A stretch of 35,274 bases of DNA from a virus (Duplodnaviria; Heunggongvirae; Uroviricota; Caudoviricetes). Location: IMG/VR virus record IMGVR_UViG_2897352509_000012; one strand, given 5' to 3'. The position numbers and the translations under genes are program-made. The notes under the pieces were generated by a model. The model was not told where the DNA came from. It did not search any database and worked only from the letters and a program-made list of their open reading frames with translations. Shown in pieces: positions 1,447 through 33,530 of this stretch (position 1 is its first letter; each line of letters opens with the position of its first letter).

Positions 1447-1532
1447 GCTGAAAAACATAACCCATAAAATGCTAGCTGTACCAGGAACCACCTCCTTAGC
1501 CTGTGTAATGTCAGTTATTGGTGACATTTTTT
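1447..1532 (+). ncRNA. cyaR: CyaR (RyeE) sRNA with a non-canonical 3' end at the prophage junction
   Basis: 1447..1509 reads GCTGAAAAACATAACCCATAAAATGCTAGCTGTACCAGGAACCACCTCCTTAGCCTGTGTAAT, matching the CyaR 5' region as I remember it; then diverges into ATGTCA-GTTATTGG-TGACAT hairpin plus T6 (1508..1532). Confidence 0.75.
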
Positions 1533-1596
1533 GATATCTAATTGCATGAAATAAAAGGATTTATTTCTGGTCACGTCCACACATTGACCACATCGA
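1507..1596. repeat. Left attachment junction; imperfect direct repeat of the right junction
   Basis: Shares AAT, T6 run, TGCAT, CTGGTCAC and TTGACCACATCGA blocks (1567..1596) with 33457..33530. Confidence 0.5.
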
Positions 1597-1597
1597 C

Positions 1598-1624
1598 AAA
1601 AAAAGCCCCTCGACTGAGGGGCTT
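1598..1624 (-). terminator. Rho-independent terminator downstream of ogr
   Basis: Plus strand AAAAAAA-GCCCCTCGACTGAGGGGC; on minus strand a GC-rich hairpin followed by T-run immediately after ogr stop. Confidence 0.6.
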
Positions 1625-1635
1625 TCTGTTTGTAA

Positions 1636-1854
1636 TTACATCCACATAATTTGCTGCCCTGACGGCAACGGGTGCGGCCTTACGGCGTGGACTTCTCCCG
1701 GCTTCACGATGTATCGCTGTACCGACTCATAAGTGATGAACGTGGCGCTGCAATTCACGTTCTGACACTGGTGATAACGCTCTTTTGTCGTGTCAGTGAT
1801 ATAGCGACTTGTACGCGCATGTGCGGCATGCTGGCATAAAGGACAATGAAACAT
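1636..1854 (-). CDS. ogr: Ogr late-gene transcriptional activator, C4 zinc finger, 72 aa
   Basis: MFHCPLCQHAAHARTSRYITDTTKERYHQCQNVNCSATF, recognised P2 Ogr with CxxC...CxxxxC; start taken at internal Met of 97-aa ORF. Confidence 0.9.
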   Translation of the reverse strand: MFHCPLCQHAAHARTSRYITDTTKERYHQCQNVNCSATFITYESVQRYIVKPGEVHAVRPHPLPSGQQIMWM

Positions 1855-1935
1855 CGCGAGCACCTCTTCCGGTTTTGTTGATAGTGCCATTTTAGTTAAT
1901 TTATCTTTACAAAACAAACAGATAAACAAAAGACA

Positions 1936-3099
1936 TCACTCATAATCTTCTGTTTCGTACTCCACATCAGAAAGCCTGACCTCAAGCTCCAAGGACGTCG
2001 TGAAGCCGCTATTATTCAGAAAATGTGTCACCTTAGTGATTGTCCAGTCCTGCTCGTCTATGACGCGCTTAAAGCCTGACACTCTGACCGGTGTTTCCGT
2101 GTAAATATCTGCACGACCGGTAGCCAGGATGATGGAGAACTCCGCAACGCCCCGTTGCAGTTTGTCCCACTTCGCCTGAGCAGCACGCATGGCCTGTGCT
2201 TTCGTGGCATATACCGTGGTCAGGGCAAAAACGTTGTCAGCCTCACCGGCCATGTATTCACCTTCGCGCGCTTCCGGTACTTTTGGCGCTTTCTTCTGCC
2301 TGACCGGTTTCGCTTTCGGGTGCTCCAGTGCGCGCAGGTGTTTCTCTTTCTTTTTGCGTTTCAGTTTTACCTTCTGCTTTTGCGGCTTCGGGTCTTTGGT
2401 GTGTAACCACTTTGCCGTTACGCCGGTGTAGGCTCCACGGTCAGCAATCGCAAAATGATGACGGTCGCCGTCGCTGCGGGTGATGGTAATCTGCGGGATT
2501 TTTTTACCGCTGGCCGTCACCCCCTGCCCCGCTTTGAGAAACAACAATTTTCCCATTTTTACCGACACCTCACCGCCGTTGCGTTCAGCAAGGCGGGTCA
2601 GGAATTTTGCATCAGACTCCTGCGACTGGTCGATGTGCGGGATTTTAATTCCGGTCAGTGACGGAGCGACACTGGCTTCCAGCCTGTTACGGGAGGCTAT
2701 CGCCTCAACAATCGCACCGAGCGTGGTGTCATGCCATGAGCCTTCCCGGCGGGAATTGAGCGTCCCGCGAAAATCTGCACTCCGGGCGCGGATGGTAACC
2801 ACATCCGGCGCGCCCCGGTGTTCAACCTCATCAACGGTAAATTTCCCTTTGCATACCAGGGCAAAACCTTTCCAGCCGATATACACCGTCAGAACAGCAC
2901 CACGAACCGGCAGCCCGACCTGCCCGTCGGCATCGTTCAGTTCAATATCAAGCTGGTCAGCCTCAAAGCCCCGGTTATCCGTCAGGGTCATGCTCATCAG
3001 ACGGTCGCTGATATTGCCGGTAATATCCCTGCTGTCGAGCATCAGCATGTAATCCGGCGTCAGCGTACTGCCTGCATCAAATGTCAGTGCATCCAGCAT
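1936..3099 (-). CDS. D: Tail protein D (late control D), 387 aa
   Basis: Length and position match P2 gpD; follows U in tail operon. Confidence 0.85.
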   Translation of the reverse strand: MLDALTFDAGSTLTPDYMLMLDSRDITGNISDRLMSMTLTDNRGFEADQLDIELNDADGQVGLPVRGAVLTVYIGWKGFALVCKGKFTVDEVEHRGAPDVVTIRARSADFRGTLNSRREGSWHDTTLGAIVEAIASRNRLEASVAPSLTGIKIPHIDQSQESDAKFLTRLAERNGGEVSVKMGKLLFLKAGQGVTASGKKIPQITITRSDGDRHHFAIADRGAYTGVTAKWLHTKDPKPQKQKVKLKRKKKEKHLRALEHPKAKPVRQKKAPKVPEAREGEYMAGEADNVFALTTVYATKAQAMRAAQAKWDKLQRGVAEFSIILATGRADIYTETPVRVSGFKRVIDEQDWTITKVTHFLNNSGFTTSLELEVRLSDVEYETEDYE

Positions 3100-31629: not shown

Positions 31630-31837
31630 AAGCCAGTTTTAGTCCGTTATTCCATGCCGGAAGGTATACCCAATATTCACCAGCACGCCCCGATACTGAC
31701 TGAGGGTCAGTAATCTCAATAACTGGTAATTTCCCTTTCTCAATCATGCCCCTTACAGCTCTTGGAGTTTTACCAATGAGTTTTGCAAACTCCTGATAAG
31801 GCACGGCATCAGTCACGCTTACAAGCTGTCTATTCAT
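31562..31837 (-). CDS. cox: Cox excisionase / early repressor of Pc, 91 aa
   Basis: ...DAVPYQEFAKLIGKTPRAVRGMIEKGKLPVIEITDPQSVSGRAGEYWVYLPAWNNGLKLAYESRPKEIRDG, recognised P2 Cox. Confidence 0.85.
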   Translation of the reverse strand: MNRQLVSVTDAVPYQEFAKLIGKTPRAVRGMIEKGKLPVIEITDPQSVSGRAGEYWVYLPAWNNGLKLAYESRPKEIRDGCYSKSRHGRAA

Positions 31838-31958
31838 CTGCTACGATTCTCCCTTAGTGCTTCTAATGGCTCCTAATGGCTAATTATTGCCTAAAAGGAT
31901 AACTCCAGAAGCACAACATTTCACACTATCAGCAAGAAATTACGCAATCGGAGTAATT
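31838..31958. promoter_or_regulatory. Lysis-lysogeny switch region (Pe/Pc) with direct-repeat operator-like sites
   Basis: Divergent cox/C spacer; direct repeats TCTAATGGC (31862..31870) and CCTAATGGC (31872..31880). Confidence 0.5.
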
Positions 31959-32258
31959 ATGTCAATAGACGTTTCGGAGAAGTTGAAGCTAATCCGTGAA
32001 TCTGAAAGGTTAAACCGTAAAGAATTCAGTGAATTAACTGGTGTAGCCTACAGCTCACTTTCGAGCTATGAGAGCCGGTCAAAAAACGCTGGAGTTGAAG
32101 CCATAATGAAGGTCTTACAACATCCTAGATTTACTAAATATACTTTGTGGTTCATGACTGATCAGGTAGCTCCAGAAGCCGGGCAAATTGCGCCCGCTCT
32201 CGCACACTTTGGGCAAAACGAAACAACGTCGCCCCACTCCGGTCAAAAGACTGGTTAA
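31959..32258 (+). CDS. C: Immunity repressor C, about 99 aa
   Basis: C-terminus ...FTKYTLWFMTDQVAPEAGQIAPALAHFGQNETTSPHSGQKTG, recognised P2 C; start at internal Met of 123-aa ORF. Confidence 0.8.
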   Translation: MSIDVSEKLKLIRESERLNRKEFSELTGVAYSSLSSYESRSKNAGVEAIMKVLQHPRFTKYTLWFMTDQVAPEAGQIAPALAHFGQNETTSPHSGQKTG

Positions 32259-32373
32259 CAATTTATCGTGAATATATTCATCACAAGTGCCTACTATTGG
32301 TGGCTAAATTTCAGCCACCACGAAAAAAGCGATTAGTAGTAGCAAAAAAAAGTACCACTCGGAGGGTTTTCTG

Positions 32374-33387
32374 ATGGCAATCAAAAAACTCGATGATGGT
32401 CGATATGAAGTGGACATCCGCCCTACTGGACGTAACGGAAAACGCATCCGTAGGAAGTTTGATAAGAAAAGCGAAGCTGTCGCTTTCGAAAAATACACGT
32501 TGTACAACCACCACAATAAAGAATGGCTATCAAAACCAACAGACAAACGACGTCTGTCGGAACTGACACAGATCTGGTGGGATTTAAAGGGTAAACACGA
32601 AGAGCATGGGAAATCTAATCTTGGAAAAATTGAAATCTTCACAAAAATAACGAATGACCCATGCGCATTTCAAATCACGAAATCCCTTATCAGCCAGTAC
32701 TGCGCCACCCGAAGAAGTCAGGGTATTAAACCTTCGAGTATCAATCGTGATTTAACATGTATTAGCGGCATGTTTACAGCCCTGATTGAAGCGGAGTTAT
32801 TCTTTGGTGAGCATCCTATCAGAGGGACAAAGAGGCTTAAGGAGGAAAAACCAGAAACAGGCTATCTCACACAGGAAGAAATAGCCTTACTGCTTGCAGC
32901 ACTTGACGGCGACAATAAAAAGATTGCGATTCTTTGCCTAAGTACAGGAGCACGTTGGGGAGAAGCAGCTCGTTTGAAAGCAGAAAATATCATCCATAAC
33001 CGCGTCACGTTTGTTAAAACGAAAACAAACAAACCACGCACCGTCCCGATCTCAGAGGCTGTTGCCAAAATGATCGCGGATAACAAACGAGGTTTTTTAT
33101 TCCCTGATGCTGATTACCCTCGCTTCAGACGAACAATGAAAGCAATAAAACCGGATTTGCCAATGGGGCAAGCCACACATGCACTAAGGCACAGCTTTGC
33201 CACTCATTTCATGATTAATGGAGGAAGTATTATCACGCTACAACGGATACTAGGTCACACGCGGATTGAGCAAACTATGGTTTACGCTCATTTTGCGCCA
33301 GAGTACCTTCAGGACGCCATTTCTCTTAATCCGCTAAGAGGTGGTACTGAGGCCGAGAGTGTCCACACAGTGTCCACAGTAGAGTAA
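32374..33387 (+). CDS. int: Tyrosine integrase, 337 aa
   Basis: P2 Int length; conserved ...HALRHSFATHFMINGGSIITLQRILGHTRIEQTMVYAHF with catalytic Tyr; adjacent to right junction. Confidence 0.9.
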   Translation: MAIKKLDDGRYEVDIRPTGRNGKRIRRKFDKKSEAVAFEKYTLYNHHNKEWLSKPTDKRRLSELTQIWWDLKGKHEEHGKSNLGKIEIFTKITNDPCAFQITKSLISQYCATRRSQGIKPSSINRDLTCISGMFTALIEAELFFGEHPIRGTKRLKEEKPETGYLTQEEIALLLAALDGDNKKIAILCLSTGARWGEAARLKAENIIHNRVTFVKTKTNKPRTVPISEAVAKMIADNKRGFLFPDADYPRFRRTMKAIKPDLPMGQATHALRHSFATHFMINGGSIITLQRILGHTRIEQTMVYAHFAPEYLQDAISLNPLRGGTEAESVHTVSTVE

Positions 33388-33456
33388 CGTTTAAGGGCTT
33401 TCAGTGGTAATTTATGCCGCTCAAACCCGCATTGTACCGTTGAAAGCCCCTACTGG

Positions 33457-33530
33457 TGACACCCTAAATCTCCCTTACACGGGCTTATTTTTTATGCATA
33501 AGCCCTATCCCTGGTCACCGTCTTCCATTG
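33457..33530. repeat. Right attachment junction with 27-bp P2-type core (33457..33483) and arm repeat CTGGTCAC...TTGACCACATCGA (33501..33530)
   Basis: AATCTCCCTTACACGGGCTTATTTTTT is the reverse complement of the P2 att core as I remember it and equals the canonical CyaR 3' end. Confidence 0.6.

Follow-up and report, generated by a model that had tools for sequence, protein, structure and literature searches.

The attachment site preferred by phage P2 in Escherichia coli lies at the 3' end of the small RNA gene cyaR, and derivatives of strain K-12 keep between cyaR and yegR only ogrK and a fragment of gene D, according to the annotations of the matched genomes. The stretch of DNA analysed here, the 35,274 nucleotides of IMG/VR virus record IMGVR_UViG_2897352509_000012 (hereafter the window), carries a P2-like prophage at this very locus, which raises the question of whether the element is still a virus that can leave its host. 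An initial annotation had answered that every reading frame appeared open and that the prophage was therefore likely inducible. This conclusion finds no support, since the immunity switch is of the P2 type, residues W81 and W84 of the excisionase Cox are lost, and the left and right attachment cores differ from one another. The element is more probably a recombinant prophage that is immune, carries a defence system, is unresponsive to the SOS response and is impaired in excision or locked in, and not an inducible virus. Open reading frames (ORFs) throughout did not equal a functional phage: alignment revealed both the chimeric excisionase and the unmatched attachment (att) cores, and both belong to the machinery of excision.

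The element is a genuine prophage of the P2 family (Peduovirus), and it lies at the preferred P2 site. The ORF map, the base composition and similarity searches give the order yegQ (1-1362), cyaR, about 32 kb of P2-like DNA, yegR and yegS, and the cyaR gene was placed at 1445-1531 (Rfam RF00112; score 55.4 bits, gathering score 47). The prophage extends from about 1507 to 33493, with its left joint at 1509/1510 and its right 27-bp core at 33467-33493. Thus, the recognition of a P2-like prophage between cyaR and yegR/yegS, where K-12 derivatives keep a remnant, was confirmed, and the ends first given for it (1510 and 33483) proved correct save for a few bases. A coding-intact P2-like prophage at cyaR, as first noted, is in itself routine.

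An excisionase with a foreign C-terminus

The cox gene (31562-31837, minus strand) codes for 91 residues of mixed origin. Codons 1-80 are of the type found in P2 and in the collinear prophage of the O157:H7 strain EC4115, and the last 11 derive from the 123-residue cox of phages of the pflA type, which integrate at the start codon of pflA. Residues 81-91 read CYSKSRHGRAA, where P2, EC4115, strain 600468, phage 720R8 and a Klebsiella Reipivirus have WLMWLGLGEP(G)R, and the Cox proteins of both P2 and EC4115 align to that of the window only up to residue 80. The foreign DNA (31546-31595) corresponds to the 3' end of the unrelated 123-residue cox, as present in pro483 and WCHEC005784, together with the cox-orf78 spacer downstream of it. 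The joint is in frame, between GGCTG and TTACAG, and was absent from phage records, from 5,426 complete E. coli genomes and from IMG/VR contigs.

Cox is required both for excision and for repression of the Pc promoter. In the P2 protein, W81 and W84 of helix alpha-4 drive oligomerisation, and the substitutions W81A and W84A each fail to complement a cox-defective lysogen (PMC3936717). Both tryptophans, which belong to the C-terminal helix of functional P2 Cox, are lost from the Cox of the window. Since each of the two residues is essential in P2 Cox, the chimeric protein is expected, by analogy, to be defective. The initial annotation had itself named hidden inactivating changes, detectable on alignment to P2, as a finding that would speak against an inducible phage, and alignment indeed brought out changes of this kind, in the C-terminus of Cox and in the non-matching left core.

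Two attachment cores that do not match

The integrase (32374-33387, plus strand) is 100% identical in protein sequence to P2 Int. The region of the P' arm and the Cox boxes (33380-33466), where the P' arm lies inside the 3' end of int, is identical to P2, and the right or int-side junction (33467-33493) is the canonical 27-bp P2 core, AATCTCCCTTACACGGGCTTATTTTTT, matching at 27 of 27 positions. On the ogr side, the IHF region and the P-arm Int sites (1547-1635) are near-identical to P2 24265-24357. The P-arm sites, TGTGGTCA and TGTGGACG, lie on the minus strand at about 1568-1598 and fit the consensus of the arm sites, tgTGGaCa (PMC3448106); the terminator hairpin of ogr follows at 1605-1622. 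Arm sites on both sides accompany a P2-type Int, as in P2.

The core on the ogr side is of another kind. The left junction (1507-1546) is composed of AAT, which is common with cyaR, the pflA-type core GTCAGTTATTGGT (1510-1522), GACATTTTTT (1523-1532) and the spacer GATATCTAATTGCA (1533-1546). A canonical locI lysogen carries the core as a direct repeat at both ends, and EC4115 and 600468 have the 27-bp core at each end, whereas the window has it at the right end only. No direct repeat of the core was found in the window, and its left core agrees with the right one at 17 of 27 positions, with one length difference. The shared positions are AAT, TC, TTA and ATTTTTT, and the probable overlap regions of the two cores differ (CTCCCTT versus GTCAGTT). 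In the empty-site strain EC958 the locus reads cyaR-core-B', and the host flank to the right of the core is the same as that of the window.

The left core and spacer are those of the pflB-side junction seen in E. albertii, in 10 contigs of IMG/VR and in 384 of the 5,426 E. coli genomes, the pflA-type identity block being GTCAGTTATTGGT, the first 13 bases after the pflA ATG. A fusion of cyaR to the pflA-type core was not found in E. coli genomes, IMG/VR, JGI metagenomes or GTDB species representatives; among the last, the core pattern has a single occurrence, beside pflB. The reciprocal joint, in which a pflA-type int side would adjoin the cyaR core, was not found in E. coli genomes. The Int of pflA-type phages is 53% identical to P2 Int, with a conserved arm-binding N-terminus and a diverged core-binding part, and this divergence fits the published role of the core-binding region of Int in setting integration specificity (PMC3448106).

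Two other origins of the left junction were considered and rejected. For the left core, a native cyaR allele was weighed, as was a secondary-site hybrid crossed over within ATTTTTT, but the adjacent spacer is also of the pflA type; and homologous recombination or inversion between two resident prophages cannot make a joint of cyaR with a pflA-type core. With so many mismatches between the cores, and with probable overlap regions that differ, excision across the hybrid pair is likely to be inefficient, by analogy with other tyrosine recombinases.

The same junction alters the host gene. From 1510 onwards the CyaR terminator is replaced by phage-borne DNA, and the 11-bp stem (-15.9 kcal/mol) gives way to a 7-bp AU-rich hairpin (-6.8 kcal/mol). 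The Rfam alignment of CyaR (cmscan) contains non-canonical pairs in the terminator helix, with a total score above the gathering threshold. With the weaker hairpin, transcription may run on antisense to ogr, and the 3' end of the small RNA, where Hfq binds, may be changed.

The surroundings of both types of site have features of their own. The host flank at 33494-33600 resembles a relic ogr-side arm, with a degenerate P-arm copy at 33506-33545 (75% identical to 1562-1601), a AATCTCCCTT core fragment and a terminator-like hairpin. The empty site of EC958 has the same relic-like flank, and thus "empty" cyaR sites appear to be ancient P2 scars. At the other locus, pflA-integrating phages insert directly after the pflA ATG, and the old start is left with a 9-codon ORF (MSVIGDIF and a stop). 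The int side of the phage gives pflA a new, longer N-terminus, which would account for its annotation as a protein of 265 amino acids.

An immunity switch without an SOS link

The repressor C (31959-32258, plus strand) is a helix-turn-helix protein of 99 amino acids that has 65% identity to P2 C and matches the C protein of EC4115 at 100%, and the C-cox switch and spacer are likewise identical to EC4115. It contains no S24 peptidase domain according to Pfam. A simple promoter scan of the C-cox spacer gave no match, and a LexA box (CTGT-N8-ACAG) occurs nowhere in the entire window. C faces Cox, and an Ogr zinc-finger late activator is present, as in a P2-type switch (Pfam HTH_3, Phage_Cox and Ogr_Delta), although Cox is complete only to residue 80. 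The early operon holds P2 homologues only, with no extra ORF for a Tum of the 186 type, no 186 CI or Tum query having been used; within the same limit, the combination of a CI repressor and a LexA-controlled Tum, which marks SOS-inducible phages of the 186 type, was not found.

Classical P2 is a non-SOS-inducible prophage, and SOS induction within the family needs the CI/Tum circuit of the 186 type. Since immunity is here of the P2 type, with a 99-residue helix-turn-helix repressor, no LexA box and no early ORF unrelated to P2, induction by mitomycin C is not expected, and SOS induction of the prophage is unlikely as judged from its sequence. Mitomycin C treatment had been proposed as the test of inducibility, a proposal that is not supported for a P2-type switch without an SOS link; with such a switch, the assay would be uninformative. 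SOS-inducible phages have been contrasted with non-inducible ones, which depend on spontaneous induction (PMC7708051).

Mosaic structure and the origin of the joints

Compared with EC4115, the window can be aligned base for base over its 35,274 positions, with 877 substitutions, no net insertion or deletion (indel) and 97.5% identity. The substitutions are unevenly spread. Two long runs are 100% identical, namely 23688-27839 (4,152 bp, covering the Lamassu defence cassette and the 3' end of gene A) and 31596-33513 (1,918 bp, covering the 5' part of cox, C, int and attR), and both cover modules that do not align to the pflA-type prophage. Shorter identical runs lie in the variable parts of the tail fibre region, at 9210-9525 (316 bp) and 10276-10756 (481 bp), and all four blocks are bordered by in-register patches dense in substitutions. 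The remaining backbone is about 3% diverged from EC4115 and about 97% identical to every relative examined.

Dense foreign patches, all in register, flank the EC4115 runs at 1510-1545 (core and spacer), 23628-23686 and 31546-31595 (cox). The middle patch matches the opening of a different hotspot cargo, and five IMG/VR contigs carry it with another cargo following on from it; at 23687/23688, where EC4115 sequence sets in, a 5-nt microhomology lying one base out of register is passed over. In gene A, the allele changes from EC4115-identical to a pro483-like variant at 27839/27840, and gpA would thus be chimeric, with an EC4115-type C-terminal portion of about 104 amino acids. The region of P, Q and cos (19600-23690) reaches a best identity of 98.6% among some 3,100 P2-like places in the 5,426 complete E. 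coli genomes, and such isolation is unusual for so conserved a module.

This arrangement probably arose when an EC4115-like prophage, resident at cyaR, recombined with a P2-like backbone and was joined to it in register, the backbone deriving, at least at its two ends, from a relative whose integration site is the pflA start codon. The joints are in register and lie a few tens of bases inside non-homologous sequence, as if exchange had proceeded to, or slightly past, the edges of homology. Candidate mechanisms would be the migration of a junction into heterology, the annealing of single strands derived from replication, and att exchange mediated by Int. The resulting prophage would keep its immunity and express its defence cargo, would respond neither to SOS nor to mitomycin C, and would excise poorly or not at all, and so be effectively locked in. 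A stably immune, Lamassu-expressing and excision-impaired prophage is the most likely phenotype predicted from the sequence. An unexcised P2 prophage can lend its late genes to P4-like satellites, and the element might possibly serve them as a helper.

The chances are about even that the event was a natural swap of modules between P2-like lineages of different integration specificity, which would have left a trapped prophage with a hybrid att pair, a crippled excisionase and a weaker CyaR terminator. The ogr-side att arm, including its core, and the end of cox would then derive from a pflA-type phage, and the int module from a cyaR-integrating one. If true, the window would hold an intermediate of attachment-site switching or of prophage grounding, caught in mid-course, and it would provide evidence of recombination that runs to, and slightly beyond, the edges of homology.

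Alternative explanations

Some considerations weigh against an excision-impaired recombinant. The effect expected of the Cox tail is carried over from the behaviour of alanine mutants of P2 Cox, a protein 81% identical to that of the window over residues 1-80. Agreement at 17 of 27 core positions resembles that of P2 secondary attachment sites, at which Int acts at low frequency, and some excision may therefore occur. The in-register joints and the reference-identical blocks, for their part, could also mark a computational chimera. The element may be a fully functional temperate phage that forms particles spontaneously, if not with mitomycin C, and whose Cox tail and core changes are tolerated natural variants, but this is unlikely. 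It would suit such a phage that all ORFs are open, that Int equals P2 Int, that conservation extends to both arms, the IHF region, cos and the ori nick region and that the cores still share over half of their positions; the hybrid left junction may also have been made by an integrase, in which case sites of this sort could recombine. Yet the phage would have to excise without two tryptophans that are each essential in P2 Cox and across probable overlap regions that differ, and it has no route of SOS induction. A successful phage would also be expected to leave relatives, whereas neither joint occurs in other genomes or in phage records.

It is likewise improbable that the sequence is a coordinate-based chimera, made for example by substitution-only consensus or patching on an EC4115-like reference, with hybrid joints that exist in no cell. 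Such a procedure would yield an alignment free of net indels and leave at 100% EC4115 identity those blocks that lack homology in the other lineage, as is observed; it would also fit the foreign sequence that reaches, in register, about 37-45 nt beyond the edges of homology, heedless of the nearby microhomology, the poly-A run of EC4115 length that lies between non-EC4115 single-nucleotide polymorphisms (SNPs), and the failure of P-Q-cos to exceed 98.6% identity to any E. coli prophage. However, natural P2-like relatives are themselves only about 1-4 net indels away from EC4115, and the migration of Holliday junctions and single-strand annealing are in register by nature too. Reads from a normal cyaR locus, moreover, would have restored the standard left core and left an overhang patch on the right; neither is seen, the right side being clean over 31596-33513, with host SNPs resuming at 33514. 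Because it predicts this standard left core and right overhang, and because natural relatives show equally few indels, the chimera is kept as a rival and is not the preferred explanation.

A further possibility, tentative but not far-fetched, is that the prophage has been grounded and is retained by its host for Lamassu, for superinfection immunity and perhaps for a helper role towards P4-like satellites, the loss of excision being a first step of domestication. Only excision functions are hit by the lesions, which spare the genes for structure, immunity and defence, and the Lamassu cassette is identical to that of 95 other complete E. coli genomes. Cargo of the P2 hotspot is known to protect hosts (PMC9122126), and intact defence genes are retained in defective P2 elements (PMC13586616). 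A single genome, however, is no evidence of selection, and the lack of further decay suggests a very recent event over maintained domestication. An immune and excision-impaired recombinant is the reading preferred here. The in-register mosaic is either an unusual natural recombinant between att specificities or a warning of a composite source sequence, and either is useful to know.

A Lamassu cassette in the A-Q hotspot

The hotspot between genes A and Q and its defence cargo are well described (PMC9122126, PMC13586616). In the window, the position of old and tin is occupied by a cassette (23747-27436) with a GC content of 32-35%, in which three overlapping ORFs on the minus strand make up a complete LmuB/LmuC/LmuA set. 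LmuA (26213-27436) is a lipase or alpha/beta-hydrolase with a CTD8 region (PADLOC 3.5e-108; Pfam CTD8, DUF676), LmuC (25714-26226) is of the MC4 type (PADLOC 1.5e-52; Pfam MC4), and LmuB (23747-25717) is an SMC-like ABC ATPase (PADLOC 1.5e-235). The motifs are intact in LmuB (K39 of Walker A, the CxxC hook CPVC337, the signature SGGLR527 and Walker B LLIFD556) and in LmuA (S116 and H226). A PDB sequence search with LmuB and LmuA returned no matches.

The cassette is 100% identical to that of EC4115. The best of its matches in complete E. coli genomes are mostly O157:H7 strains, and no match was found in deposited phage records. Lamassu Ec-Lipase, a short Lamassu whose effector is a lipase and which has a Zn hook, is active experimentally against lambda-vir (PMC12663957). 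The cassette of the window resembles it in its LmuA lipase/hydrolase, its LmuC and its SMC-like LmuB with Walker A, as well as in the CxxC hook and the catalytic histidine. The residue numbers differ (K39 and H226 in the window, K42 and H215 in Lamassu Ec-Lipase), the likeness being one of type and motifs. By kinship with this active lipase-type system of E. coli, the Lamassu of the window is predicted to have an anti-phage role. In OkiPb01683, the otherwise near-identical Lamassu has two 1-nt deletions relative to EC4115 and the window, at the equivalents of 25886 and 27516; with these deletions, and with LmuC annotated as shorter, that copy may be inactivated.

Gene content and occurrence

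The prophage is ordinary in content: its family is a familiar one, whose best-known site it occupies, and its cargo is of known types. Peduovirus records match the window at 96-97% identity in Megablast, and pro483 covers 94% of positions 1400-25000; the DNA is about 97% identical both to P2 and to pro483. A P2-type int adjoins yegR in 811 of the 5,426 complete E. coli genomes (about 15%), and prophage-occupied cyaR sites are thus common in the species. A tRNA scan of the window found none.

All 42 P2 proteins were compared with the window by tblastn, and the essential genes proved collinear and full length, with amino acid identities of 82-100%. Neither stops nor frameshifts were seen in Q, P, O, N, M, L, X, Y, K, lysA/B/C, R, S, V, W, J and I, nor in FI, FII, E, T, U, D, ogr, int, C, cox, orf78, B, orf80-83 and A. 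The gene order conserved in P2 (Q P/O N M L X Y K lysABC R S V W J I H G/FI FII E T U D/ogr/att/int C cox B A) is preserved. All 43 proteins of the collinear EC4115 prophage match without gaps, each over its full length except Cox. The initial annotation had listed all P2 structural, lysis, packaging, replication and immunity genes as present at expected lengths and free of visible frameshifts and stops. For the essential genes, which are full length and open, this holds; it does not hold for H (399 amino acids versus 669 in P2), G (147 versus 175) and I (203 versus 176), whose lengths differ, or for orf30, fun(Z), orf91, tin and old, which the P2 protein queries did not detect in the window.

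The late genes on the minus strand begin with ogr (1636-1854), D (1936-3099), U (3099-3578) and T (3593-6040), continue with E (6185-6460, the E+E' frameshift product reaching to about 6033), FII (6517-7035) and FI (7048-8238), and all of these are full length and 98-100% identical to P2. The genes I, J, W, V, S, R, lysC, lysB, lysA, K, Y, X, L, M, N and O (baseplate, tail completion, lysis and head) occupy 11686-20449 on the same strand, and all are full length in tblastn with P2 and EC4115 proteins, at 82-100% identity. On the plus strand, P (20623-22395) codes for the terminase large subunit and Q (22395-23429) for the portal, as identified with P2 proteins. Replication and early genes return to the minus strand, with A (27526-29808, its ori nick region at about 27912-27992), orf83, orf82, orf81, orf80, B (30884-31384) and orf78 (31381-31551).

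The control elements of this backbone largely follow P2. The PP/PO control region (20446-20626) is identical to that of P2, the 19-nt P2 cos is exact at 23599-23617, between Q and the hotspot, and the E/E' slippery sequence TTTTTTG, like the ori nick region inside A and the PP/PO region, is conserved. The PF and S-V (PV) regions have the arrangement of pro483, and the S-V spacer is that of pro483. Both arm sites are intact, as are the repressor C, Int, cos, the ori nick region and the late control region PP/PO.

An invertible tail-fibre module

The genes H, G and I belong to a fibre module of the pro483 type, which replaces the H and G of P2; 391 of the 399 residues of H are identical to pro483 gp31. 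A serine DNA invertase of the Hin/Gin/Cin type (8298-8891, minus strand; 197 amino acids from MRIGYVRVST; Pfam Resolvase 5e-52 and HTH_7) is 96% identical to the EC4115 invertase. Together with the invertible segment (8956-10866), it occupies the position of fun(Z) in P2. The segment is bounded by inverted sites of 18 nt at 8956-8973 and 10849-10866, which are 94% complementary.

In the current orientation, H (10490-11689, minus strand; Pfam Phage_tail_fib and Gp53-like_C) has 399 amino acids, with a constant part that extends to ...AYLGLGE, and is followed by the currently expressed assembly protein (10026-10469, minus strand). The plus strand carries an alternative fibre C-terminus (8916-9452) and its assembly protein (9452-10054), and Pfam identifies Collar and Caudo_TAP domains in the segment. 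When the inversion is simulated, the constant part of H is joined in frame to the collar-domain C-terminus, and the product is an H of 439 amino acids with its own assembly protein. A serine invertase, inverted sites and two in-frame fibre C-termini thus make up a segment of the Din type. Several deposited P2-like records carry the same fibre/invertase module, and both the invertible fibre and the defence cargo of the A-Q hotspot are already described features of P2-like elements.

The EC4115 H gene is given in RefSeq as a pseudogene plus a fragment. That it is broken was rejected, as the ORF of 399 amino acids is uninterrupted and the break looks like an annotation artefact. The start of the invertase gene and its upstream region (8868-8947) form a distinct allele in the window, in which 40 of 80 nt are substituted, for the most part synonymously within the first codons; it differs from EC4115, pro483 and a pflA-type prophage, which agree among themselves.

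Comparison with related elements

The fibre module resembles the Din-family segments, namely the G segment of Mu with Gin, the C segment of P1 with Cin and the P segment of e14 with Pin, in having a serine invertase beside a segment with short inverted sites, and in that inversion exchanges the fibre C-terminus together with its chaperone. Unlike the segments of Mu, P1 and e14, that of the window lies in a P2 backbone, between G and FI.

Phage P2 (NC_001895) shares with the window its gene order, cos, ori nick region, late control, Int, attachment site and the architecture of C and Cox. The window differs in having another fibre module with an invertase and Lamassu in place of old and tin, and in being devoid of orf30, fun(Z) and orf91. 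As its C protein is 65% identical to that of P2, the prophage likely belongs to a different immunity class.

The EC4115/TW14359 prophage (O157:H7, NC_011353.1, 2807.4-2839.4 kb) has the same locus, gene order and length as that of the window. It also shares the invertase and fibre module, an identical Lamassu and an identical stretch from C through int to attR. In contrast, its Cox C-terminus is canonical, as is the 27-bp core at each of its ends, and the common backbone is about 3% diverged. Phage pro483 and the prophages integrated at pflA (WCHEC005784, for example) have in common with the window the H fibre, the invertible module and the S-V spacer, as well as the left core with its spacer and the last 11 cox codons. 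Yet these prophages differ in their Int of 331 amino acids, their Cox of 123 amino acids, their repressor and their cargo, and they are inserted at the pflA start codon.

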